Virus record (IMG/VR): IMGVR_UViG_3300045988_137643
Location: 28,377 to 92,376 of that record
Direction: 5' to 3' (one strand)
Source of the DNA: a virus
Taxonomy: Duplodnaviria; Heunggongvirae; Uroviricota; Caudoviricetes
DNA: 64,000 nucleotides
The notes under the pieces are model-generated. The model worked only from the letters and a program-made list of their open reading frames with translations, ran no database searches and was not told the DNA's origin. This document shows, piece by piece, positions 2,661 through 29,437 of this stretch (position 1 is its first letter; every line of letters begins with the position of its first letter). A program made the translations under genes and the position numbers.

Positions 2661-3450
2661 TAAAGCAATCCCTGAGCTTGGCTCTGATGTTATGCAGCAA
2701 ATCTATCTCTGCGCCATAAATCGCTACCCTAATGAAGCGTGTGGCTTTCTGGTTAGAACTAATGGCGACAAATATCGCTTTATGGAAGCGCGGAATGTTT
2801 CGGAGAACCCGCAGAACACTTTTGTAATGCACGTTGACGACATTATGGCGGCAGAGGATGCGGGTGATGTTATCGCAATCTGGCATTCACATACTGATGA
2901 ATCAGCAGAAGCATCTGATGCCGATCGTGCAGGCTGCGAAGCGACGGAAGTTCCGTGGATGATTCTGGCTATTCGCAAGAATGTTGAGGGAGATGCCCCT
3001 TTCCATTTTAGCGAGATGAATGTGATCACACCTGATGGTTTCGAAATGCCATACCTGGGCAGACCGTATGTATTTGGCGTATTCGATTGCTGGATGTTGT
3101 GTCGGGACTATTTGAAGCGTGAGTTTAACGTCGAACTAAACCCGAACGCACACCTGCATATTCCATCGTGGTACACCGGCGATAACGACATTCTAGACCA
3201 GAACTACCGAAACGAAGGATTGGTGCGTCTTGCGCCCGGAACAGAGCCTCAACGTGGGGACATCTTCTTTATCCAATACGGGAAAATGCCTGACCACTGC
3301 GCGGTTTATATCGGCGATGGAATGATTCTTCATCACCAGATCGACCGCCTAAGTTGTCGTGCTTATTACGGCGGGATGTATCAGAAACATACGACGCATC
3401 ACTTGCGTCACAGAGACTTGCTCAAGGGAGATGAGACGTGTCTGAGTTAG
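2653..3450 (+). CDS. Tail assembly protein K-like (MPN/JAMM plus NlpC/P60-like)
   Basis: JAMM-type motif HSHTDESAEASDAD; Cys/His-containing C-terminal half; track start 2626 is TTG, ATG at 2653 has GGAG RBS. Confidence 0.6.
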   Translation: MGNKAIPELGSDVMQQIYLCAINRYPNEACGFLVRTNGDKYRFMEARNVSENPQNTFVMHVDDIMAAEDAGDVIAIWHSHTDESAEASDADRAGCEATEVPWMILAIRKNVEGDAPFHFSEMNVITPDGFEMPYLGRPYVFGVFDCWMLCRDYLKREFNVELNPNAHLHIPSWYTGDNDILDQNYRNEGLVRLAPGTEPQRGDIFFIQYGKMPDHCAVYIGDGMILHHQIDRLSCRAYYGGMYQKHTTHHLRHRDLLKGDETCLS

Positions 3451-4028
3451 TTCATGTGCAGCTTGGCGGCCCTATGGCCAAACATTTTGGCCGCCACTGG
3501 CATCTAAAGGTGCGCAATACAAAACAGGCTCTGGATTTAATTGAGGCCAACAAGCCGGGGTTTAAAGCATGGATGAAGCGCAATATCAAAACCTATGACA
3601 GATACCACATCCAGATCACCAATAAACAGGGCCACAAGTGGTCTGTGGACGAGAGTGAATATCAGATGATGGGGCAGTCTGACAACATTGCCAAAATCCG
3701 CATTACCCCTGTTCCGCGAGGAAGTGGCGGATCTGCTTTTGGATGGTTTCAGACGGTTGTTGGAGCAGTGTTAATGGTTGCCTCGATATGGGTGCCCGCT
3801 CTTGCGCCTCTCGGTTTGTCACTGATGATGGGTGGTATAGCGCAAATCATATCTCCGCAAGCCACTAACGAAAGTGTGAGGCAGGCGGATAACTCGAACT
3901 CTTATTACTTCGATGGACCTCAAAACACAACAAACCAGGGGAACCCTGTACAGCTTATCTATGGTGAGGAAATTTTAGTTGGCTCACAGGTCGTGAGTTC
4001 TTCTATCACCATCGACCAGCTTATGTAA
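3438..4028 (+). CDS. Tail assembly protein I-like
   Basis: Position between K and J; hydrophobic C-terminal segment; GTG start with AGGGAG RBS. Confidence 0.45.
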   Translation: MSELVHVQLGGPMAKHFGRHWHLKVRNTKQALDLIEANKPGFKAWMKRNIKTYDRYHIQITNKQGHKWSVDESEYQMMGQSDNIAKIRITPVPRGSGGSAFGWFQTVVGAVLMVASIWVPALAPLGLSLMMGGIAQIISPQATNESVRQADNSNSYYFDGPQNTTNQGNPVQLIYGEEILVGSQVVSSSITIDQLM

Positions 4029-4045
4029 TCAAGGATTTTTTGGAC

Positions 4046-7000
4046 ATGGAACAGTTCAAGAAGAAAAAATTACCGCTTCTTATTGCCGGTGCTGGTGGCA
4101 AGAAAAGTAAAAGCTCCAGCCGTACTCCGGTTGAAGCTGATGATACTGTCAATTCTCGTGCTATGGCAGCCATCCTCGACCTTCTTGGCGAGGGGGTTAT
4201 CGGTGGCCTGGTAAATGGCGCAAAGTCGATCTTCATCGACGATTTACCGATCTTGAATGAAGATGGCTCTTCCAACTTCAGCGGTATTACATGGGATTTT
4301 CGTGACGGCTCACAAGACCAGACGCCAATGGCTGGTTTTGATTTTGTCGAAACGCCTAAGTCCGTAAATATTCAGCTTAAAAAAACACACGACGTTACGG
4401 TTTCAATCGATAACGATGAAGCTGATCGCGTTCGTGTCATCATGAAATTCCCATCTTTACGTAGCGTTGATAAAAGCTCTGGCGATACAAATGGCACTAC
4501 GGTGAAGTACAAATTCCAGATCGCCAACGGAGACGCAACATTTTCTGATGTAGTGGCAGAAGGTGAGAAAAGCGTTGATATCACGCTAACGGCAAAGAAA
4601 ACCGGCGTGTATTACCGTAGCTATGAGCTGAAACTGCCTAAGCCTGGTCGTGCATACAAGGTTAGGGTGATTCGTCTTACAGATGATAACAGTAGCCAGT
4701 ACCTCTACAACGACACATGGGTTGATTCCATCGGTGAGATTGTCGACACGCCAATGAACTACCCTAACTCAGCTCTTGTTGGCTTGAAGGTCAATTCAGA
4801 GCAGTTTGGTAGCACAATGCCTTCCCGTTCGTATTTGGTGCGCGGTATCAAAATCCGAGTACCGTCAAACTACAACGAATACACCAATACTTATGTCGGC
4901 GTATGGGACGGTACTTTTAAGCTGTTGTCTTCTTCAAACCCTGCGTGGATTCTCTACGATTTGCTTACCAATACTCGGTATGGTCTTGGGCAATTTGTGT
5001 CGGAATCCATGATTGACCTCGGCCAGCTCTACCAGATTGGTCGATATTGTGACGAAGAGGTCGATGATGGCTTTGGGGGTAAAGAGAAACGCTTTGCAAT
5101 CAATACGCAGATCACCAGTCGACAAGACGCATACCGATTAATTCAGGATATTGCCGGTGCATTCCGCGGCATGGTGTTTTGGGCTGGTGGCATGGTTAAC
5201 ATCATGCAGGATAGCCCATCAGATCCGGTAATGATGTTTACCAACTCCAACGTCAAAGATGGACTATTTACCTATAAAGGTTCTGCGCGTAAAGATCGCC
5301 CATCCGTTGCGCTCGTAACCTACAACAACAAGGAGGACGGTTATAAGCAAAACATCGAGTACGTTGAAGATCAGGACGCAATGCGCCGTTATGGTGAGCG
5401 TAAAACAGAAGTCGTAGCATTTGGATGTACAAGCCGAGGCCAGGCTCACCGAGTTGGTTTGTGGCTTTTGTATACCGCCAGAATGGAGTCGGATGTAATT
5501 ACATTTACTGCCGGCTTAGACGCCTCATTTCTGATGCCCGGTGAAACCGTTCTGATTCAGAACAAATATCGTGCAGGTAAACGTAACTCCGGTCGAATTG
5601 TGGAGTTTACCAAAAACAGCATCACTCTCGATGCGCCTGTGTCGTTAGCTAAAAGCGGCAGCTTTATTCGGATATTGAATCAGGAAGGCAAAATCGTTGA
5701 ACGCGATGTTCTTGAAACTGGCGAAAACATAACAAAGGTTACGTTTTCAAAAGCTCTGTCGTCAGCGGAAACGCCTGTTTTGAACGGTGTCTGGACAATT
5801 ACAGAACCAGATCTCGAACCTATGCGCGTTCGCATCGTTAACATCGCGCAGGGGGAAACGCCGGGTAGCTTTGACATCACCGCTGTTGAGAACAATCCGT
5901 CTAAATATGAGGCAATCGACAATGGTGCAACGCTTATCCCGCAGAATACGACGGTATTGGACCCGACTTACTCTAAGCCATCTAATTTGCAAATCACTGA
6001 AGGGACTTACCTCTCAAGCCCGGGAAACCTGTCAGTAAAACTGACTGCAACATGGGAAGGGAAATCTCCAGAGTATTGGATCAGTTGGCGACGTTCTGAT
6101 GAAAACAATGTATCGAACTGGCAATCGGCGCGTGTAACCGAAGAGCAATACGAAATCGTTAATGTAGCGGAGAATGGACGCTACGACTTCCAACTGTATG
6201 CGGTTTCATTCAACGGTAAAAAAACAGAAATTATCAGTACCGTTTATCAGGTGCTGGGAACAATGACACCGCCGGATGCACCAACGTCATTAACGGCCGT
6301 TGGAGACTATCGTAATGTGATACTGAATTGGGTTAATCCAGATTCGGTAGACCTTGATCACATTAATGTTTACGCATCCCAGACCAACAATCTGGATACG
6401 GCGAAACTGATCGCAGAGTCTGCAAGCACCACCTTTACACATGCTGGTCTTGGGGATAGCGAAACGTGGTATTACTGGGTTCGAGCATCGAACAAGCGAG
6501 GTATGTTAAGCCCTCCGAACTCAAACTTGGGTACAGAGGCGACAACTCGCGATGTACTGTCGTTCCTGGCTGGCAAAATTACATCTTCCGAGCTTGGTCA
6601 GGCTCTGCTTGAGGACATCAACAGCAAAGCCTCTCAAGAAGCAGTTGACGAGTTAAATGAGCATATCAACCAGAGCGTCGAATCTTTGGAGGGGTCGGTA
6701 AACGACGTTAAGGAAGATATAGCTGAATTAGATAAGCAGTTCAGCGATAACCTCGCGGATTTTGAAATAAAATTCAACGAGCGTAGCGATGCTTTGGAGA
6801 ACGCACAAACCGAACTTAAAGGTGAGGTTTCGGCAACGATCGACAAGGTCAATGAAGCGTTTGAAAAAATTGATGCTACTGATGCTGCAATTGTTGAAAT
6901 CGAAAACACCGTATCTGAACACGATAAAGCTCTCGCTAATACAGTCGAGGCAATAAAGGCTGCAAGAGATGAAGCAGCAGCTCTTATTGCTAAGGAAAGC

Positions 7001-8770
7001 GAGGCTCGTGTTGAAGGCGATGCTGCAAACGCTAAACAACTGGAAGTGTTGCAGTCAACGGTAGAGGAAAGCTCCGCTGCCGTTGAAGAAATGAAAAAGA
7101 CGGTTGCAGAGGTCGATCGTGCCAGTGCAGAACTGACTACGAACATTGAGGCGTTAGCCAAAACAAATATTGACCTGGCTCTTCGTCAAGATGAAGACCA
7201 GCACAAGCAGATGGTCAATAACGCGAAGATCGCAACAACACAGAAAACCTTTGCTGATGATATGTCTGCAATGGCCACGAAGGTTGAGGAAATTCGCGTA
7301 GAAATTGGCGAAGACATTAAGGCCAGTATTCTGGAAGAGTCCACCGCTCGTGCCGATGGCGATGAAGCGTTGGCAAAGCGTGTCACTCAGCTGCAATCTA
7401 AGTTTGAAGGAGATATCAGCGCGGCGATTAGTACAGAGCAGGAGGCTCGTACATCTGCCGATGAAGCTCTGACGACACAGATCACTCAGCTTGAGTCGAA
7501 AGTAAGCAACGATATCGTCGCAGCTATTAAGGAAGAGCAAGAAGCCCGAGCAACGGAAGATTCGGCTCTGGCAAGCCAGATCACCCAACTACAGGCAAAG
7601 GTTGATGATGATATTTCTGCTGCAATACGTAGTGAGCAGGAGGCTCGAGCAAGCGGGGACTCTGCATTAGCCAAACAAATAAACCAGCTTCAGTCAAAGG
7701 TTGACGGTGATATATCCGCTGCCATCACTCAGGAGCAGGAGGCCAGGGCAAGTGCTGACCAGGCGCTCTCACGAGAAATTAACAGCCTGCGAGCACAGAC
7801 CGGAACTGATATTGCCGCAGCGGTTGCTGTAGAGACAAAGGCAAGGACTGATGCCGATAGTGCATTGTCCACTCAGATTACGTCTCTTACAGCAAAAGCT
7901 AATGATCTCGAGGCATCTCTTGCCAGAGAAACAACGGCTCGTGCAGATGGTGATACCGCTTTAACAAAAGAGGTTTCAAGTTTAAAAGCACAGACTGCGA
8001 AAGATATTAGTGCGGCCGTTGCAGTTGAAACGCAGGCTCGAACTGATGCTGACTCGGCGTTGTCATCTCAGATCACCAAGCTGACCTCTCAATACAAAGA
8101 GGATATTAAAGCGGCTGTAGCAACCGAAACGAAAACGCGTACAGAGCAAGATGCGGCACTGGCGACTCAAATCACAAACTTAGAGTCTCAAACAGCAGCC
8201 AACATTTCTGCGGCTGTCACAACTGAAACGACAGCGAGAACGCAGGCAGATAATGCTCTAAGTGGGCGAATCGATACTCTGAAAGCAGAGGTGGATGGAA
8301 ATACCGCGACAATTCAACAGCAGGCAACAGCCATTGCTGATACCAACAAAAAAGTCTCAACCGCGTGGACGTTGAAAATGGAGACTTCAACGAGCGGAGG
8401 GCAGAAGTATGTTGCCGGTATTGCGCTTGGTATCGACACCACCGGTCTTTCTCAGTTTTTGGTGCAGGCGGACAGATTTGGTTTGGTCAACTCTGTTAAC
8501 GGGAAGATCACCACGCCATTTGTTATCGAAAACAGTATCGCCTATATGAATGGTGCGTATATCAAGGATGGCACAATCACCAATGCAAAAGTAGGCGATC
8601 TGCAATCTACCAATTTTGTTAGCGGTAGATCTGGATGGCGGTTCGGCAAAAATGGAACGCTTGAGATCAACGGTAATAGCGGCGGCAATGGGCGACTGGT
8701 CATAAATGGTCAGCGGATTGACGTTTATGACGATAACAACGTACTACGAGTAAGAATTGGCCTTCTGTAA
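4046..8770 (+). CDS. Host specificity protein, lambda gpJ-like central tail fiber
   Basis: Blocks recognisably similar to lambda J as I recall it (VPSNYN...GVWDGTFK, AFGCTSRGQAHRVGLWLL, KYVAGIALG...LSQFLV); ATG 4046 with AAGGA RBS (track uses TTG 4040). Confidence 0.85.
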   Translation: MEQFKKKKLPLLIAGAGGKKSKSSSRTPVEADDTVNSRAMAAILDLLGEGVIGGLVNGAKSIFIDDLPILNEDGSSNFSGITWDFRDGSQDQTPMAGFDFVETPKSVNIQLKKTHDVTVSIDNDEADRVRVIMKFPSLRSVDKSSGDTNGTTVKYKFQIANGDATFSDVVAEGEKSVDITLTAKKTGVYYRSYELKLPKPGRAYKVRVIRLTDDNSSQYLYNDTWVDSIGEIVDTPMNYPNSALVGLKVNSEQFGSTMPSRSYLVRGIKIRVPSNYNEYTNTYVGVWDGTFKLLSSSNPAWILYDLLTNTRYGLGQFVSESMIDLGQLYQIGRYCDEEVDDGFGGKEKRFAINTQITSRQDAYRLIQDIAGAFRGMVFWAGGMVNIMQDSPSDPVMMFTNSNVKDGLFTYKGSARKDRPSVALVTYNNKEDGYKQNIEYVEDQDAMRRYGERKTEVVAFGCTSRGQAHRVGLWLLYTARMESDVITFTAGLDASFLMPGETVLIQNKYRAGKRNSGRIVEFTKNSITLDAPVSLAKSGSFIRILNQEGKIVERDVLETGENITKVTFSKALSSAETPVLNGVWTITEPDLEPMRVRIVNIAQGETPGSFDITAVENNPSKYEAIDNGATLIPQNTTVLDPTYSKPSNLQITEGTYLSSPGNLSVKLTATWEGKSPEYWISWRRSDENNVSNWQSARVTEEQYEIVNVAENGRYDFQLYAVSFNGKKTEIISTVYQVLGTMTPPDAPTSLTAVGDYRNVILNWVNPDSVDLDHINVYASQTNNLDTAKLIAESASTTFTHAGLGDSETWYYWVRASNKRGMLSPPNSNLGTEATTRDVLSFLAGKITSSELGQALLEDINSKASQEAVDELNEHINQSVESLEGSVNDVKEDIAELDKQFSDNLADFEIKFNERSDALENAQTELKGEVSATIDKVNEAFEKIDATDAAIVEIENTVSEHDKALANTVEAIKAARDEAAALIAKESEARVEGDAANAKQLEVLQSTVEESSAAVEEMKKTVAEVDRASAELTTNIEALAKTNIDLALRQDEDQHKQMVNNAKIATTQKTFADDMSAMATKVEEIRVEIGEDIKASILEESTARADGDEALAKRVTQLQSKFEGDISAAISTEQEARTSADEALTTQITQLESKVSNDIVAAIKEEQEARATEDSALASQITQLQAKVDDDISAAIRSEQEARASGDSALAKQINQLQSKVDGDISAAITQEQEARASADQALSREINSLRAQTGTDIAAAVAVETKARTDADSALSTQITSLTAKANDLEASLARETTARADGDTALTKEVSSLKAQTAKDISAAVAVETQARTDADSALSSQITKLTSQYKEDIKAAVATETKTRTEQDAALATQITNLESQTAANISAAVTTETTARTQADNALSGRIDTLKAEVDGNTATIQQQATAIADTNKKVSTAWTLKMETSTSGGQKYVAGIALGIDTTGLSQFLVQADRFGLVNSVNGKITTPFVIENSIAYMNGAYIKDGTITNAKVGDLQSTNFVSGRSGWRFGKNGTLEINGNSGGNGRLVINGQRIDVYDDNNVLRVRIGLL
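7310..8300 (+). repeat. In-frame tandem array of about ten 33-aa (99 bp) coiled-coil repeats inside the J-like gene
   Basis: Periodic protein motif DISAAI..EQEARA..D.AL..QIT.L..KV repeated back-to-back. Confidence 0.8.
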
Positions 8771-8862
8771 TGTAGAAAAAAATATTTACATCGGTAAAAA
8801 TAAGTATGTACTTACTTAATGGCGGGCAAGGATAGCTCGCCAAATCAAGGAGCATATTCAAC

Positions 8863-11800
8863 ATGTGGTACAGGGAAGGTACTATCACATTTACACAGGG
8901 TAGCAATACTCTGGTTGGGGTTGGGACAGCCTGGAACGTAACAGCTAATGGTGTGTTGCCGGGGATGATCGTCATTGGCCCCGACAATAAGCTGTATGAG
9001 ATCAAGCGCGTAACAAGCGATACGAATATTGTTCTCTCAGAACCTTATACCGGCGAAACTCAGTCTGAAGTTCCGTGCCGAATCATTACGACCTATGAAG
9101 GCGACTTAACACAGTTTAGCGCGCGCTTTACTGCGCTAATGTCGCGTATGTCGGCTGATTCCAAGTCCATGCGCAGTTGGTTGACTGCGCTGGATGAGGT
9201 GACAATCGAGCGTGAAGACGGTACAGAAGTGACCGTTAAGCCGCTGATGCAGATCGTCAACGAGCACAACGAAAACGTTGAGTGGTATAAAAATAACACC
9301 GATGCGATTGACGCTGCTGGCGACAAAGCTCGTGAGGCGGCGGCCAGTGCTGCCGCAGCAGCAGAAAGCGCCAATACCGCTGGAGAAAAAGCCTCTCAAG
9401 CGTCTCAAAGTGCATCCGCTGCGGCTTCCTCACAAAGTGCTGCAAGTGCGAGTGCAACTGCTGCGAAAAAATCTGAAACAAACGCAGAATCAGCATATGT
9501 CGCGGCAGCAGAATCAGCATCTGTAGCGTCGACTAAAGCATCGGAGGCGGCCACATCTGCGTCCAGTGCCTCTGCATCTAAGGATGCGGCTAAAGCATCA
9601 GAGACTAACGCGTCATCGAGTGCAAACGCGGCGGCATCATTTGCAACAGAAGCTGAAAATTCGTCTAAGGCAGCAAAAGCGTCAGAGACAAACGCAAAAG
9701 CATCTGAAACGGCAGCCGGGCAGAGTGCATCGTCTGCAAACAGTTCGAAATCTGCGGCAGAAGCGTCAGCAAGCGCAGCCTCAGCAAGTGCGGATAGTGC
9801 TTCATCAAGTGCAACTGCGGCAGGAAAATCTGCGGAAAGCGCGTCGTCATCAGCGACAACAGCTACCGCAAAAGCGACTGAGGCGACGAATCAGGCTACA
9901 GCCGCTAAAAATTCAGCATCGGCAGCAAAATCCTCTGAAACAAATGCAAAGACTTCAGAAGACAATGCCGCTTCCTCTAAGGCTGCAGCTGCTGAATCTG
10001 CAAGTTCTGCGTCAGCATCAGCCACCTCGGCGTCTGCTTCAAAGGATGAGGCGACCAAGCAGGCATCAGCTGCGAAGGGTAGTGCTTCAACGGCATCCAC
10101 GAAAGCAACAGAGGCGGCAGGCAGTGCGACGGCTGCATCTCAGAGCAAAACTGCTGCTGAATCCGCTGCGGCCCGTGCAGAAGCTGCCGCTGATCGTGCT
10201 GAAGAGATTGCCGGTGCAGTTGCGATGGAAGACGCAAGCCTTACAACTAAAGGTGTTGTGAAACTTAGCAGTGCTGTCGATAGCACCAGCGAATCACTGG
10301 CTGCAACTCCAAAGGCAGTTAAAGCTGCGAATGACAATGCGAATAGCCGATTGGCGAAGAACCAGAATGGTGCTGATATACCAGGTAAGGATACCTTCAC
10401 GAAAAATATTGGCGCTGGGCGAGCATTTGGAGGCTCTGTAAGCACAACAGCAGGAAACTGGACTACGGCACAGTTTGTCGAATGGTTGGACTCTCAAGGG
10501 GCGTTTAATCATCCGTACTGGATGTGTAAAGGCTCATGGTCGTATGGCAACAACAAAATCATTACTGATACTGGTTGTGGCGATATTCATCTTGCCGGGG
10601 CAGTAATTGAGGTAATGGGGATAAAGTCCGCAATGACGATCCGCGTTACCACACCAACAACATCTAGCGGTGGTGGTACTGCTAACGCTCAATTTACTTA
10701 TATTAACCACGGGACAGATTATTCTCCAGGCTGGCGACGAGACTACAATACAAAATACAAACCTACGCCATCGGATATAGGTGCATTATCAACATCAGGA
10801 GGGACGGTTTCAGGTCCGTTGTCTGTTACTGGTGGATTAACTGGTTCATTGAATGGCAATGCGAGTACCGCCACGAAATTGCAGACTGCAAGAACTATCG
10901 GCGGCGTGGCCTTCGATGGATCTGCGAACATAAATTTGCCTGGTGTAAACACGGCAGGTAATCAGAGCACTACTGGTAATGCCGCAACCGCTACAAAACT
11001 TCAAACGGCAAGAACGATTGGTGGCGTTTCATTTAACGGAACTGCCAACATCGACTTGCCCGGAGTTAACAAAGCTGGCAACCAAAGCACCACAGGTAAT
11101 GCTGCTACAGCTACTAAATTGCAGACAGCAAGAACCATCGGTGGTGTTAGCTTCGATGGCACTGCGAATATTAATTTGCCTGGTGTTAATGCTGCCGGTA
11201 ATCAGAACACTACCGGTAACGCGGCCACAGCGACCAAGTTGCAAACTGCTAGAACTATTAACGGGGTGTCGTTTAACGGCTCTGCGAATATTTCAATACC
11301 AACAATTACGTCCAGAGGACGCGTTACTGCGCTCACAGGTACAACACAAGGTGCTGCGACTGGATTGCAGATGTACGAGGCATATAACAATGGCTACCCT
11401 TCGACTTACGGGAATGTGCTTCATCTTAAGGGCGCAACGGCCGTTGGTGAAGGTGAGTTGTTCATAGGTTGGAGCGGTACAAGTGGCGCTCATGCACCTG
11501 TACATGTACGTTCGCGACGAGATACGGATACATCCAGTTGGTCTGAATGGGCGCAAGTTTATACGTCCAAAGACTCAATTCCAGGTGTCAATGCCACCGG
11601 TAATCAGAACACTACTGGCAACGCAGCCTCTGCAACGAAGTTGCAGACAGCCAGAACAATTGGAGGTGTGTCGTTTAATGGTACCGCCAATATTAACTTG
11701 CCGGGTGTTAATATAGCGGGTAATCAGAATACGACTGGTAACGCAGCTTCAGCCACGAAGTTACAAACGGCTCGTACTATCGGTGGTGTTAGTTTTAACG

Positions 11801-12519
11801 GTACAGCCAATATTAACTTACCTGGTGTGAATACGACCGGTAATCAGAACACTACTGGTAATGCTGCAACCGCCACAAAATTGCAGACAGCAAGGAAAAT
11901 TGCTGGTGTGGCGTTTGATGGCTCTGCCGATATTACTTTGACTGCGGCTAACCTTAATGCTTATACGAAAACTGAGGTAACAAACCTTCTAAGTTCCTAT
12001 GCAAGCAGATCATCACTGACAGGCTATAGTGGCAACCTGGATATTATCGCTGAAACACTGGTTGTCAAATCAGGCGGTAGTGGAGGGTTTGCTATATGGG
12101 ATATTGGCACAACTACTAGCGGTGCCAATATGTACATTGATCCAAACCCAGGTATCAATACAGTTTGGCGTTCAACATCTTCAAGGCGCTATAAAAAGGA
12201 TATTGAAACATTACAAGATCGATATGCTGATGAACTTTTGTCATTAAGACCTGTTTGGTATCGTTCAATTTGTCGAGGTGACCGAAAGGATTGGGGGTAT
12301 TACGGCCTTATTGCTGAAGAGGTTGGTGAGATTGCCCCGCAATATGTCCATTGGCGTGAACCAACAAATAATGATTCTCCAGAAGATATTTCCTCAAATG
12401 GTATGGTCGCTGAAGGGGTGATGTATGAGCGTTTGGTTGTACCACTCATTCATCATATTCAGCAATTGACCAAAAGGGTTGAGGAGCTTGAAACGAAGTT
12501 AAATTCACCTAAAGAATAA
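8863..12519 (+). CDS. Side tail fiber protein (lambda Stf-like N-terminal region) with C-terminal S74-type intramolecular chaperone
   Basis: Ala/Ser-rich heptad region with KASETNAKASETAAG-type units as in lambda Stf; 40-aa repeats; C-terminus SSRRYKKDIE...GLIAEEV typical of autoproteolytic chaperone domains. Confidence 0.8.
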   Translation: MWYREGTITFTQGSNTLVGVGTAWNVTANGVLPGMIVIGPDNKLYEIKRVTSDTNIVLSEPYTGETQSEVPCRIITTYEGDLTQFSARFTALMSRMSADSKSMRSWLTALDEVTIEREDGTEVTVKPLMQIVNEHNENVEWYKNNTDAIDAAGDKAREAAASAAAAAESANTAGEKASQASQSASAAASSQSAASASATAAKKSETNAESAYVAAAESASVASTKASEAATSASSASASKDAAKASETNASSSANAAASFATEAENSSKAAKASETNAKASETAAGQSASSANSSKSAAEASASAASASADSASSSATAAGKSAESASSSATTATAKATEATNQATAAKNSASAAKSSETNAKTSEDNAASSKAAAAESASSASASATSASASKDEATKQASAAKGSASTASTKATEAAGSATAASQSKTAAESAAARAEAAADRAEEIAGAVAMEDASLTTKGVVKLSSAVDSTSESLAATPKAVKAANDNANSRLAKNQNGADIPGKDTFTKNIGAGRAFGGSVSTTAGNWTTAQFVEWLDSQGAFNHPYWMCKGSWSYGNNKIITDTGCGDIHLAGAVIEVMGIKSAMTIRVTTPTTSSGGGTANAQFTYINHGTDYSPGWRRDYNTKYKPTPSDIGALSTSGGTVSGPLSVTGGLTGSLNGNASTATKLQTARTIGGVAFDGSANINLPGVNTAGNQSTTGNAATATKLQTARTIGGVSFNGTANIDLPGVNKAGNQSTTGNAATATKLQTARTIGGVSFDGTANINLPGVNAAGNQNTTGNAATATKLQTARTINGVSFNGSANISIPTITSRGRVTALTGTTQGAATGLQMYEAYNNGYPSTYGNVLHLKGATAVGEGELFIGWSGTSGAHAPVHVRSRRDTDTSSWSEWAQVYTSKDSIPGVNATGNQNTTGNAASATKLQTARTIGGVSFNGTANINLPGVNIAGNQNTTGNAASATKLQTARTIGGVSFNGTANINLPGVNTTGNQNTTGNAATATKLQTARKIAGVAFDGSADITLTAANLNAYTKTEVTNLLSSYASRSSLTGYSGNLDIIAETLVVKSGGSGGFAIWDIGTTTSGANMYIDPNPGINTVWRSTSSRRYKKDIETLQDRYADELLSLRPVWYRSICRGDRKDWGYYGLIAEEVGEIAPQYVHWREPTNNDSPEDISSNGMVAEGVMYERLVVPLIHHIQQLTKRVEELETKLNSPKE
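10830..11940 (+). repeat. About nine 40-aa (120 bp) tail-fiber repeats, interrupted at 11290-11570
   Basis: Repeated unit PGVN.(A)GNQNTTGNAATATKLQTARTIGGVSFNGTANINL. Confidence 0.8.
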
Positions 12520-12579: not shown

Positions 12580-12834
12580 ATGAGCTATGGTGCACAGGTT
12601 TGGTCGCCATCAAGACAGGAGATGGTCGATGCGTTGGCCCCTGTTTATTACCTCGATTATTTTACTCCCTCTGGTTCTGGAAGTAGAACATATGATGTTG
12701 AGGCGGGATTGGGAATCGACTATTACATAATGGACGTAACCAATGGGAAATACACAAGTCTTACGGTTTCTGGAAATACCATTTCATGGTCTGGAGCTAG
12801 TGGTAATTTAAACATATTGGTTTTTCAAAAATAA
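12580..12834 (+). CDS. Hypothetical protein downstream of tail fiber
   Basis: ORF with AAGGA RBS; no recognisable motif. Confidence 0.3.
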   Translation: MSYGAQVWSPSRQEMVDALAPVYYLDYFTPSGSGSRTYDVEAGLGIDYYIMDVTNGKYTSLTVSGNTISWSGASGNLNILVFQK

Positions 12835-13442
12835 TGTACGGAAGCAAGATATATCGATCTGACGGGAAGGTCTGGATGTCTCCTTCTTTGTCTCCTATCG
12901 TTTTTCAGAGAAAGCAGGTTGTTTCTTTATCCGGCGGGACAGAGTTTAACACCCAAATATCTCCAGATCGTTCACCGATGATTTTTGTTGCCTATTCGAA
13001 AGCTGTTTCATTAATAGCCAACAGAATAGTGCGTAACAACCAGGTGATTTACAGTTTCGGAGGTCAGGGTAGCGACTCTAGTGCCACGATATACGTATTT
13101 TCGAAAGGTATAGCCAAAAAAGAAACTTGGGGCATGAGTTTTTTCAATGCACAAGGGGAGGAAATCTATAATACGGCAAATATCCCACTTTCATTTACCT
13201 TTCTTAATAATACGGAGTGGAACAGCTCTGGAGGGCATGTTTTTGATTACCCACCAGCGATAATCCCAACATATGCGAATGTGTTCGCTGTTCCAGTACC
13301 GGGCGGAGCCATGACAATGGTTTATGGATATGCGGCATATGGAAATACTGTTAGCTCGATATTCGTAAACCAACTTAATGGCGGCCATAGTTTTAGCGTA
13401 AATGGCAGAGTACCGGTAATAAATAGAAATCTGTATAACTGA
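12834..13442 (+). CDS. Hypothetical protein, possibly tail-fiber associated
   Basis: Start overlaps upstream stop (TAATG); no recognisable motif. Confidence 0.3.
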   Translation: MYGSKIYRSDGKVWMSPSLSPIVFQRKQVVSLSGGTEFNTQISPDRSPMIFVAYSKAVSLIANRIVRNNQVIYSFGGQGSDSSATIYVFSKGIAKKETWGMSFFNAQGEEIYNTANIPLSFTFLNNTEWNSSGGHVFDYPPAIIPTYANVFAVPVPGGAMTMVYGYAAYGNTVSSIFVNQLNGGHSFSVNGRVPVINRNLYN

Positions 13443-13449
13443 TGAGTAA

Positions 13450-13683
13450 ATGATGAAAAGATTATTTCTAACAATAGCTGTTGTTCTCTCTCTTACTGGC
13501 TGCCAGAAATTGCCGACACCTATATGTTATGGTGAGGCTATCATTGGTGGACAGGAGACAGTCATACCTATATATGCTGTTAAAAAGGTTAACGGCTATA
13601 CCTTATACAAAGCGGGTAGCATCTATAACTGGCGATGGGTTGGAGTAGGTGCTTTCTCATCTGTGCGTTGCAATGCTGAATGA
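13450..13683 (+). CDS. Small lipoprotein, candidate superinfection-exclusion protein (Cor/Llp-like position)
   Basis: Signal peptide plus lipobox LSLTGC; 77 aa; directly after receptor-binding genes. Confidence 0.4.
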   Translation: MMKRLFLTIAVVLSLTGCQKLPTPICYGEAIIGGQETVIPIYAVKKVNGYTLYKAGSIYNWRWVGVGAFSSVRCNAE

Positions 13684-28333: not shown

Positions 28334-29437
28334 ATGAAAAATAGCTTTGACAGAGCACGCGCTGCGGAGAACACCTCAAAAGAGGCGATTGAGTATCTCG
28401 AAAGAGCATCTCAAATGCAGGCCGTTATGATCTCGCAGGTTAGCATTGATATGAGATTCTCGGACGCATTCATGTTATTCACTCGCTTATCTCTGCTGAT
28501 AACCAGACGTCGGCCAGAGATCGCTGTTCATTGTATTTTGATACATGTTTTGCCGCACATTGCCGATGTAAAAGTAAGTGACATTAATAGGTTCATGGTG
28601 AACCAACTGGTCAACCCACTAATACTGGATGGCAAAATTGTTATGGGCCGCCGCGTTTTCTCTCTGATGAAGCAGTTCCTTAGCTGGTGCGCCTTCCAGG
28701 GGATGATAGACGTGTCACCGTTAAACGATATGTCACTAAACAAAGTTGCCGGTGGCGCAAAGCCCACACCTCGCGAGCGGAAGCTGACCGACGCAGAGGT
28801 ATGGGTGTTCTGGAATATATGGGACTACTTCAATGTGTGCGCTGGTACAAAATGGGCGGCCAGGCTGTGTCTTGTATCAGCAAGACGACCTGACGAAGTA
28901 CTGCGGGCTAAAAAAAGTGAGTTCAATCTTAAGCGTGGGGTTTGGAATCAAGGCAAGAGAAACAAGTCAGCACGTGAGCATTCGCTGCCTTTAAGCACAT
29001 TAATGCGCACATGCATTGAAGAGTTGTTCGAATACGGTAAAGACAGCCAGTGGCTCGTGCCTTCGAATAAAAAAATCGGGAAAGACCTTCCTATGTCTAA
29101 AGTGGCAATAGCCCAGGCATTACGTCGTATTCTGGAACGACCAGAACTGATGGAGCTTGAGCCATTTACACCCCGAGATTTGCGCCGTACTGCGCGTAGT
29201 TACTTCCCAGCATTAGGCATAAGCCAGGAGGTATCACGCAAAATCATGAACCACAGTCTTGAGGGGATAGATCGGGTCTACGACCGGCACGATTATATGG
29301 ACGAGATGCGAGACGCCTTAGAAAGTTTCTCGACGTACATCGCATCAATCGTAGAGCAACCGGATTTAGACGAAATTGACCACAAATTCAAGGGAGATCG
29401 TCTATCAACAGAGCTTATTCGTGTAAATTTTTCATAG
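28334..29437 (+). CDS. Tyrosine recombinase (phage integrase family)
   Basis: 367 aa; C-terminal catalytic-region residues (DLRRTARS, HSL, VYDRHDY). Confidence 0.7.
   Translation: MKNSFDRARAAENTSKEAIEYLERASQMQAVMISQVSIDMRFSDAFMLFTRLSLLITRRRPEIAVHCILIHVLPHIADVKVSDINRFMVNQLVNPLILDGKIVMGRRVFSLMKQFLSWCAFQGMIDVSPLNDMSLNKVAGGAKPTPRERKLTDAEVWVFWNIWDYFNVCAGTKWAARLCLVSARRPDEVLRAKKSEFNLKRGVWNQGKRNKSAREHSLPLSTLMRTCIEELFEYGKDSQWLVPSNKKIGKDLPMSKVAIAQALRRILERPELMELEPFTPRDLRRTARSYFPALGISQEVSRKIMNHSLEGIDRVYDRHDYMDEMRDALESFSTYIASIVEQPDLDEIDHKFKGDRLSTELIRVNFS

Follow-up and report, generated by a model that had tools for sequence, protein, structure and literature searches.

A J-like tail protein of an SSU5-like phage-plasmid with a long helical shaft of 33-residue units, a probable central tail fibre of the T1 and F-pyocin type

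Introduction

How does a phage recognise its host when its J-like tail protein lacks the domain that binds the receptor in lambda, and what is the use of the long repeat array that this protein carries instead? This question is raised by a 64,000-nucleotide stretch of DNA, hereafter the window, which covers positions 28,377 to 92,376 of the IMG/VR virus record IMGVR_UViG_3300045988_137643. By its sequence relationships, the window belongs to an SSU5-like phage-plasmid of Escherichia coli. SSU5-like phage-plasmids are common and move resistance genes, and their host recognition has barely been studied. From the analysis described here, the J-like gene of the window is probably the central tail fibre (tip attachment protein) of this phage-plasmid, and is of the T1 gp33/F-pyocin type rather than the lambda type; this degree of confidence applies to the favoured explanation as a whole.

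Results

Domain organisation of the J-like protein

The J-like gene (window 4046..8770, plus strand, stop codon included) encodes a protein of 1574 amino acids (aa), as read from the list of open reading frames (ORFs) and its translation. The ORF spans 4040/4046-8770, and residues were counted from the ATG at 4046, which is the start of the annotated homologue in NZ_CP027358.1. The protein is composed of a hub, a proline-free alpha-helical segment of about 565 aa and a beta tip without a receptor-binding domain. The hub-forming N-terminal part (aa 1-844; 4046..6577) is collinear with residues 1 to about 820 of lambda J in BLASTP. Pfam identified FNIII-A_GpJ, Phage-tail_3, fn3 and Phage_Tail_Tip. 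Phage_Tail_Tip (PF09327) is the last domain, located at aa 1422-1556 of 1574 (E 1e-41), so that 18 aa remain behind it, and the conserved KYVAGIALG...SQFLV block sits within this domain. The distal beta tip (aa 1418-1574; 8297..8767) thus consists of Phage_Tail_Tip and a conserved C-terminal strand ending in ...LRVRIGLL, and Pfam detected no Ig_GpJ_C (PF12421) in the protein at E 0.1. The J-like proteins of T1, SSU5 and PhiR41_1 also have Phage_Tail_Tip as their last domain.

The two ends of the protein were placed on lambda J by BLASTP. Residues 20-858 aligned with lambda J 3-835 at 32% identity over 873 columns, and residues 1419-1507 aligned with lambda J 841-931. These breakpoints indicate an insertion of about 560 aa at a place where lambda J has about 5 residues, made of about 230 aa of non-repetitive helix and an array of 329 aa. 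The first-pass annotation had described an insertion of about 330 aa at 7310-8770; the insertion exists, but its size was underestimated, and while that interval delimits the array plus the tip domain exactly, it misses the first 40% of the insertion. In lambda J, Phage_Tail_Tip (845-972) is followed by the receptor-binding domain Ig_GpJ_C (1001-1132; Pfam), which is the LamB-binding domain. Behind the KYVAGIALG...SQFLV block, 100 aa are left in the window protein against 233 aa in lambda J, in agreement with the earlier remark that this region is much shorter. The expression "shortened C-terminal domain" is, however, not appropriate, because Phage_Tail_Tip is complete and one whole domain, Ig_GpJ_C, is missing. 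The NCBIfam model lambda_TipJ gave 532.9 bits, below its cut-off of 1950. Since the lambda receptor-binding domain is absent, receptor recognition must be organised differently here. The suggestion of a different architecture, with an extended stalk and a distinct tip, is therefore borne out by the missing domain and the helical insertion.

Relationship to T1 gp33 and the F-type pyocin fibres

Among sequences of solved structures, the J-like protein matched the F2 pyocin fibre, T1 gp33 (9l9p_S) and lambda J with E values from 1e-155 to 1e-115, and the F2 pyocin fibre was the best of them (E 1e-155). Further solved relatives found by sequence were the "J-like tail tip protein gp24" and DEV gp56 (9ze4_N). 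The C-terminal 300 aa matched residues 882-1193 of the F2 pyocin fibre chain at E 6.6e-25, and the C-terminus aligned with the ends of T1 gp33 and DEV gp56. The helical segment aligned to the T1 and F2 pyocin shafts, and T1 gp33 shares with the window protein both the 33-aa units (EALSREIDQLKAQIGDDIQASLTDIREVIATET) and the C-terminal strand. In T1 gp33, the C-terminal 350 aa are unresolved and were modelled as an extension of about 37 nm. In the central fibres of the F2 and F7 pyocins, a trimeric coiled-coil shaft of 163-180 aa, to which side fibres are bound, is followed by a beta-prism tip, and the small pyocin proteins PyoF11/F12 and PA0642 were proposed to attach at this tip. From this sequence comparison, the architecture appears to be one already known from T1 gp33 and the F-pyocin central fibres, of which the window protein is a long member.

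Composition and predicted structure of the shaft and tip

The shaft (aa 845-1417, 573 aa) contains no proline, few glycines and 16-20% alanine, and it is acidic, with 113 D+E against 58 K+R. Its first part, the non-repetitive helical segment (aa 845-1088; 6578..7309), shows a heptad-like hydrophobic period of 3.55 by Fourier analysis, whereas the period in the array is 3.65, or 33/9. Nine inward positions per unit were read from the consensus, namely 3, 7, 10, 14, 18 (or 17), 21, 25, 28 and 32, so that each 33 residues would present nine core-facing positions with an 11/3 periodicity. Three of the nine are occupied by the invariant residues E10-R14-D18, a charged triad spaced i, i+4 and i+8, and with this triad in the core the coil would be held partly by buried salt bridges.

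The structure of the C-terminal part, whose prediction had been suggested by the first-pass annotation, was modelled by AlphaFold2 (AF2) as a monomer (aa 1175-1574) with an alignment of 106 homologues. The model consists of a long helix, with a predicted local distance difference test score mostly of 84-91 and one break at aa 1251-1254, and of beta strands from aa 1409. Foldseek results were dominated by the long helix, and the meaningful matches came from the tip only, which resembles the SU10 tail tip fibre (7z4b) and lambda J (8xcj/8xci). By analogy with the solved pyocin shafts, we infer that the shaft is a parallel trimeric coiled coil; three chains would form it as in T1 and the pyocins, and with a rise of about 0.15 nm per residue the tip would stand about 80 nm beyond the hub.

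The 33-residue repeat array

Self-comparison of aa 856-1420 gave a dominant single lag of 33 residues (32% identity), with echoes at 66 and 99. By self-comparison and stacking, ten tandem units were defined at aa 1089-1417 (7310..8296), in which unit 6 has 32 aa. The earlier count of about ten 33-aa repeats is thus correct, and the units are helical and lie at the insertion point relative to lambda J. The consensus of the unit is xDISAAIxxETxARTxADxALxxQITxLxSKxx, and the positions A5, E10, R14, D18, A20, L21 and L28 are invariant in the ten units. An isolated eleventh copy was matched by a hidden Markov model (HMM) of the unit at aa 979-1011 (6980..7078), and SSU5, pMT1 and PhiR41_1 likewise have an isolated copy at the corresponding position. 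The units are 30-73% identical as protein and 41-63% identical as DNA, no exact word shared between them exceeds 14 nt, and Tandem Repeats Finder reported nothing within the array at the DNA level. A repeat that is seen in the protein only, on DNA that has diverged, indicates that the array is old, and a recent amplification was therefore rejected.

The unit profile was compared with 1.84 billion cluster representatives, and 1951 proteins were matched at E <= 1e-3, of which 171 at E <= 1e-30. Some of them carry 20-31 matched stretches, and one protein of 2138 aa (P0219) combines a J-like N-terminus, 22 units and Phage_Tail_Tip. Ten units are accordingly not an exceptional number, as had been considered, but lie in the middle of the range for unit-bearing proteins. 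A word-indexed homologue search gave no protein longer than about 930 aa, and full-length copy-number statistics from that search are unreliable. Several database homologues join the 33-aa units to Ig_GpJ_C or to a T7-type fibre N-terminus, PF03906 (P0019, P0021, P0027 and P0031, P0038), which identifies the unit as a shuffled shaft module that is not specific to J proteins without a receptor-binding domain.

Possible compatibility of the shaft with two folds

A fold switch has been described for a related fibre. He et al. 2026 (PMC12874032) reported that, in the central fibre of the F7 pyocin, a coiled coil of 163 aa becomes a beta-prism on cell contact, and that Ala-to-Gln substitutions at the "small" positions of this fibre block killing. 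In the same work, 21 of 24 phage homologues, modelled as trimers with AF3 and CF-random, were predicted by AlphaFold in either state, and the strands carry the motif SxSxxMxxLxS together with E/D-R pairs at i+/-4. Homologues were accepted there at E < 1e-6 to the F7 fibre; for comparison, the C-terminal homology of the window protein is to the F2 pyocin fibre, at E 6.6e-25.

The same motif was found in the window array. There were 27 matches, against 5.7 +/- 2.2 in shuffled sequences (maximum 16 in 500 shuffles). They occur at fixed phases, in reverse at positions 5-15 and forward at positions 20-30, each in all ten units, and a further forward match at 13-23 is found in six units. Each unit thus contains two full motifs with stretches rich in Gly, Asp and Asn between them, and E/D-R pairs at i+/-4 are present as well (E10-R14-D18). 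The strongest hydrophobicity harmonic of the unit is 33/16, or 2.06 residues (p 0.017 by column permutation), and the helical harmonic does not stand out, owing to the charge at three core positions. These features suit a sequence that could take either fold, but they are not proof.

If the F7 pyocin is a valid analogue, the modules would convert their coiled coil into a beta-prism after receptor binding, giving a shorter shaft and an open tip, and the number of units, which differs by whole units among relatives, would set the reach and the stored energy. This idea is speculative, and we rate it at somewhat below an even chance. The more specific version, in which the 33-aa unit is the quantal block of the switch and refolds into one beta-hairpin layer of the prism, is doubtful. 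If it holds, a shaft of 10-30 units would be a tunable spring, with about 5 nm of reach and a share of collapse energy per helical unit, and the natural variants of 9, 10 and 11 units would be ready-made length mutants.

Receptor-binding candidates downstream of the J-like gene

The next large gene (8863..12519, plus strand) encodes a Stf-like side tail fibre of 1218 aa. This fibre has a Mu/P1 S-like domain, 40-aa repeats in two arrays and, at its C-terminus, the chaperone domain Peptidase_S74. The Stf gene is followed on the plus strand by three small genes. ORF84 (12580..12834; phrog_557, E 1.7e-24) belongs to the T1 gp32 family and is a candidate adaptor or accessory of a receptor-binding protein (RBP) at the tip. 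ORF202 (12834..13442; phrog_425) belongs to the T1 gp31 family and is the candidate RBP on the J tip. The third gene (13450..13683; phrog_1119, E 8e-30) encodes a Cor superinfection-exclusion lipoprotein of 77 aa, which scored 79.5 bits with the NCBIfam equivalog lamb_exclu_cor, against a cut-off of 31, and is 28% identical to T1 Cor (E 1e-10). ORF84 matched T1 gp32 in BLASTP at E 5e-4, and shares its PHROG with T1 gp32, bas04_0024 of FritzSarasin and orf63 of VT2-Sakai.

In T1, gp32, gp31 and Cor lie directly after gp33 and fall into the same three PHROGs as ORF84, ORF202 and Cor of the window, and the same holds for three small genes next to the J-like gene in FritzSarasin. In T1-like phages, the locus beside the gpJ homologue, taken with its exclusion gene, tracks the terminal receptor, and the proteins that it encodes are assumed to be located at the far end of the J-like protein; for an RBP encoded beside a gpJ homologue, DEV gp56-gp55-gp54 is an example with structural support. 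ORF84 and ORF202 showed no predicted lipobox and no match to a membrane-protein family. The ORF202 model is a soluble all-beta protein with the Oekolampad RBP as its best match, and neither the ORF202 family profile nor a phmmer search with ORF84 matched any PDB sequence. The word-indexed search with ORF202 alone gave 5 relatives, and a wider search of the family needed an alignment seeded with the T1, FritzSarasin and VT2-Sakai homologues. The family is present in Teewinot and the JLBYU Warwickviruses, phages that were analysed in a study of FhuA dependence. On the likeness to the T1-type locus and on this occurrence of the family, ORF202 is proposed to be the tip RBP that binds both the J tip and FhuA. 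By analogy, a small separately encoded protein, and not the J tip-fibre itself, most likely binds the receptor; ORF202, possibly with ORF84 as adaptor, would be docked non-covalently on the J tip and would read the terminal receptor there. The neighbouring Cor suggests FhuA as the likely receptor: Cor would block, in lysogens, the receptor that the phage itself uses. Stf probably makes the first, reversible contact with lipopolysaccharide (LPS). The first-pass annotation had considered delegation of receptor recognition to the Stf-like fibre; the likelier delegate is the T1-type small RBP module of ORF84, ORF202 and Cor (12580-13683).

The phrog_557 and phrog_425 pair was also found directly after the tail-fibre gene of short-tailed Stx phages (VT2-Sakai 4768-5618), where there is no J-like protein. 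These two genes may form a portable module, for receptor binding or for the fibre tip, that serves unrelated tail types.

Several features of Stf itself were recorded. The repeats form two arrays of about three 40-aa (120-nt) units, at window 10876-11255 and 11584-11935, with the sequence ATKLQTARTIGGVSFxGxANIxLPGVNxxGNQxTTGNA. The Mu/P1 tail fibre S-like domain lies at aa 451-668 (E 5e-82 to 8ju3_A). A region rich in Ala, Ser and Thr is 71% identical to part of lambda Stf, and this is the sole match to lambda Stf. Several ORFs of 80-230 aa, antisense or in another frame, lie across J and Stf (8700-9005 on the minus strand; 9566-10261 in the Ala/Ser-rich region, for example), and these look like by-products of the biased composition rather than genes.

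Unit number among relatives

The J-like gene is 99.7% identical to that of plasmid NZ_CP048306.1 and 94-95% identical to those of phages CMS-2020a and Cyrano. More distant relatives are found in Klebsiella, Enterobacter and Citrobacter phage-plasmids, Salmonella phage SSU5 and Yersinia pestis pMT1. The array occurred in 167 of 5426 complete E. coli genomes, every time on a plasmid. By the unit HMM, 5 tandem units are present in SSU5 and in an E. hormaechei plasmid, 6 in pMT1, 9 in PhiR41_1 and 10 in the window, each with the isolated copy in addition. Among plasmids with at least 96% identity over the array, unit numbers of 9, 10 and 11 occur, and most match the window length exactly, with four exceptions. 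NZ_CP027358.1 and NZ_JBXSFF010000003.1 are without aa 1185-1217, NZ_CP081792.1 is without aa 1205-1237, and NZ_CP182176.1 has 33 aa added after aa 1196. The changes comprise whole units only, and all of them fall among units 3-5, which are mutually the most similar.

Copy-number variation is thus real but rare, being seen in a small number of the 167 genomes. The expectation that the array would be a site of such variation is correct in that 9, 10 and 11 units occur; an array that is old and diverged in DNA is, however, not a copy-number hot spot. Frequent copy-number change as a host-range switch was likewise rejected, as variants are rare and the DNA identity between units is low. These results also show neither a full receptor-binding domain nor an invariant repeat number: Ig_GpJ_C is absent and the number of units varies.

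Other changes of the J-like gene were observed among the relatives. In the E. coli plasmid NZ_CP083480.1 (2207-13978, minus strand), the J-like protein has 3923 aa, and its C-terminal half is replaced and contains none of the 33-aa units; it carries an ILEI-like domain and ends in Phage_Tail_Tip, with the last 316 nt 86% identical to the window gene. The J-like ORF of Klebsiella phage vB_KpnS_p4727 has at least 2877 aa (from 5980 to the end of the fetched locus), here too with a replaced C-terminal half and without 33-aa units. Both giant genes share the N-terminal 2.6 kb with the window gene at 75-89% nucleotide identity. The pMT1 protein (3025-7656) has 135 aa past Phage_Tail_Tip without a Pfam match, and the gene immediately downstream is a DUF4376 gene; an extended tip is therefore present in some relatives and not in others. 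In the close relative NZ_CP022167.1, an in-frame deletion of 4 aa is located at aa 272-275, in the N-terminal hub part and outside the repeats.

Discussion

The role of the shaft can be read in more than one way, and several observations weigh against a fold-switching one. AF2, run on the monomer with a deep alignment, predicted the repeats as helix only and gave no beta-prism. Strong homology to the pyocin shaft is limited to the last unit and the tip. The 33-aa unit also occurs in T7-type PF03906 fibre proteins, for which no fold switch is known, so that it may be a plain coiled-coil module. These points suit an inert trimeric coiled-coil ruler, which sets the reach of the tip through O-antigen or capsule and never refolds. 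Unit numbers from 2 to about 30 across relatives are also what a length-setting spacer would show, and lambda and T5 function without such a switch. A ruler does not readily account for invariant charged residues at three of the nine core positions in each unit, for a beta-like periodicity that is the strongest hydrophobic one, or for a fold-switch motif enriched about five-fold at fixed phases and in alternating orientation; moreover, the homologous F7 pyocin shaft does switch. We consider the static ruler a serious possibility, though one that falls short of an even chance. A different use of the same shaft would be a docking platform for Stf, with the repeats as multiple or adjustable attachment sites. 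In the F2 and F7 pyocins, the side fibres attach at an acidic kink of the coiled coil, and the window shaft is acidic as well, but the N-terminus of Stf showed no detectable similarity to solved chains in the PDB, pyocin side fibres included, and the pyocins use a single short site and not a repeat array. This role as the main function of the shaft is unlikely.

The proposal that a separate small protein reads the receptor also meets difficulties. The pairwise match of ORF202 to T1 gp31 is weak (E 0.014), the triad of small genes is located 3.8 kb from J, behind Stf and not directly downstream (the order in SSU5 is identical), and the ORF84/ORF202 pair, as it occurs in Stx podophages, is bound neither to FhuA nor to J-like proteins. 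T1 gp33 itself has been taken by some authors for the protein that binds FhuA, with one study listing it as the RBP. With the PHROG names "outer membrane protein" and "membrane associated protein" for the ORF84 and ORF202 families, and with Stf separating these genes from J, one may suppose that the tip domain of J binds the receptor itself and that ORF84 and ORF202 are morons or membrane proteins. We regard this as improbable, as it is at odds with the missing lipobox and membrane-protein matches, with the soluble all-beta model of ORF202 and its resemblance to the Oekolampad RBP, and with the conservation of the triad, Cor included, next to J in T1-like phages, in which this locus and receptor specificity go together. 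Equally improbable, in our judgement, is recognition wholly by Stf, with the central fibre as a membrane-piercing device only. Stf is large and modular, with its S-like and repeat domains, and SSU5 was reported to bind the LPS core by its side-fibre protein gp22, which is the sole experimentally reported receptor interaction in this phage group. The window, however, has no gene of the SSU5 gp22 type and carries a self-chaperoned Stf (Peptidase_S74) instead. In addition, Cor and the T1-type pair of RBP genes are conserved between SSU5 and the window, which argues for a protein as terminal receptor that is read at the tip. Placement of the window protein in the T1/F-pyocin class, with a separate RBP at the tip, thus remains the favoured explanation. 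It predicts that ORF202 is the tip RBP, FhuA the likely terminal receptor and Cor the exclusion factor. For the shaft, the 33-aa modularity and the whole-unit variants would offer a simple genetic system that could show whether fold switching takes place in real phages and whether it scales with the length of the shaft.

The window protein can be compared with four known systems. With lambda GpJ (PDB 8iyk/8xcj), it shares the first 840 aa or so at 32% identity, the arrangement of domains as far as the second FN3 domain, and Phage_Tail_Tip, and the gene neighbourhood M-L-K-I-J is found in relatives of the window. Unlike the window protein, lambda GpJ has its own Ig_GpJ_C, and of the two only the window protein has the insertion of about 560 aa. 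The RBPs of DEV, which is a podovirus, and of Oekolampad (Bas18) have LptD as their receptor and are not similar to ORF202 in sequence. T1 gp33 has the J-like hub and a helical segment with the same 33-aa units; its last domain is Phage_Tail_Tip, its C-terminal strand is homologous, and the same three accessory families (phrog_557, phrog_425 and phrog_1119) accompany it. The T1 shaft is, however, about 165 aa long with about 4 units, against about 565 aa and 10+1 units here; the T1 RBP genes follow J directly, whereas a Stf gene of 3.7 kb intervenes in the window; and the window element, unlike T1, is a temperate phage-plasmid of about 110 kb. The central fibre of the F-type pyocins (F2 PyoF10/PA0641; F7 CFP; PDB 25vf and relatives) has a coiled-coil shaft with E-R salt bridges, as is probable for the window protein too, and shares with it a beta tip without a receptor-binding domain and the SxSxxMxxLxS pattern. 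The pyocin shaft is heptad-based as described, while the window shaft is three times longer and has clear 33-aa units, and both the docking of side fibres on the shaft and fold switching have been shown for pyocins only. To this class the window adds an explicit 33-aa modularity, natural whole-unit variants and a displaced T1-type RBP/Cor module in SSU5-like phage-plasmids.

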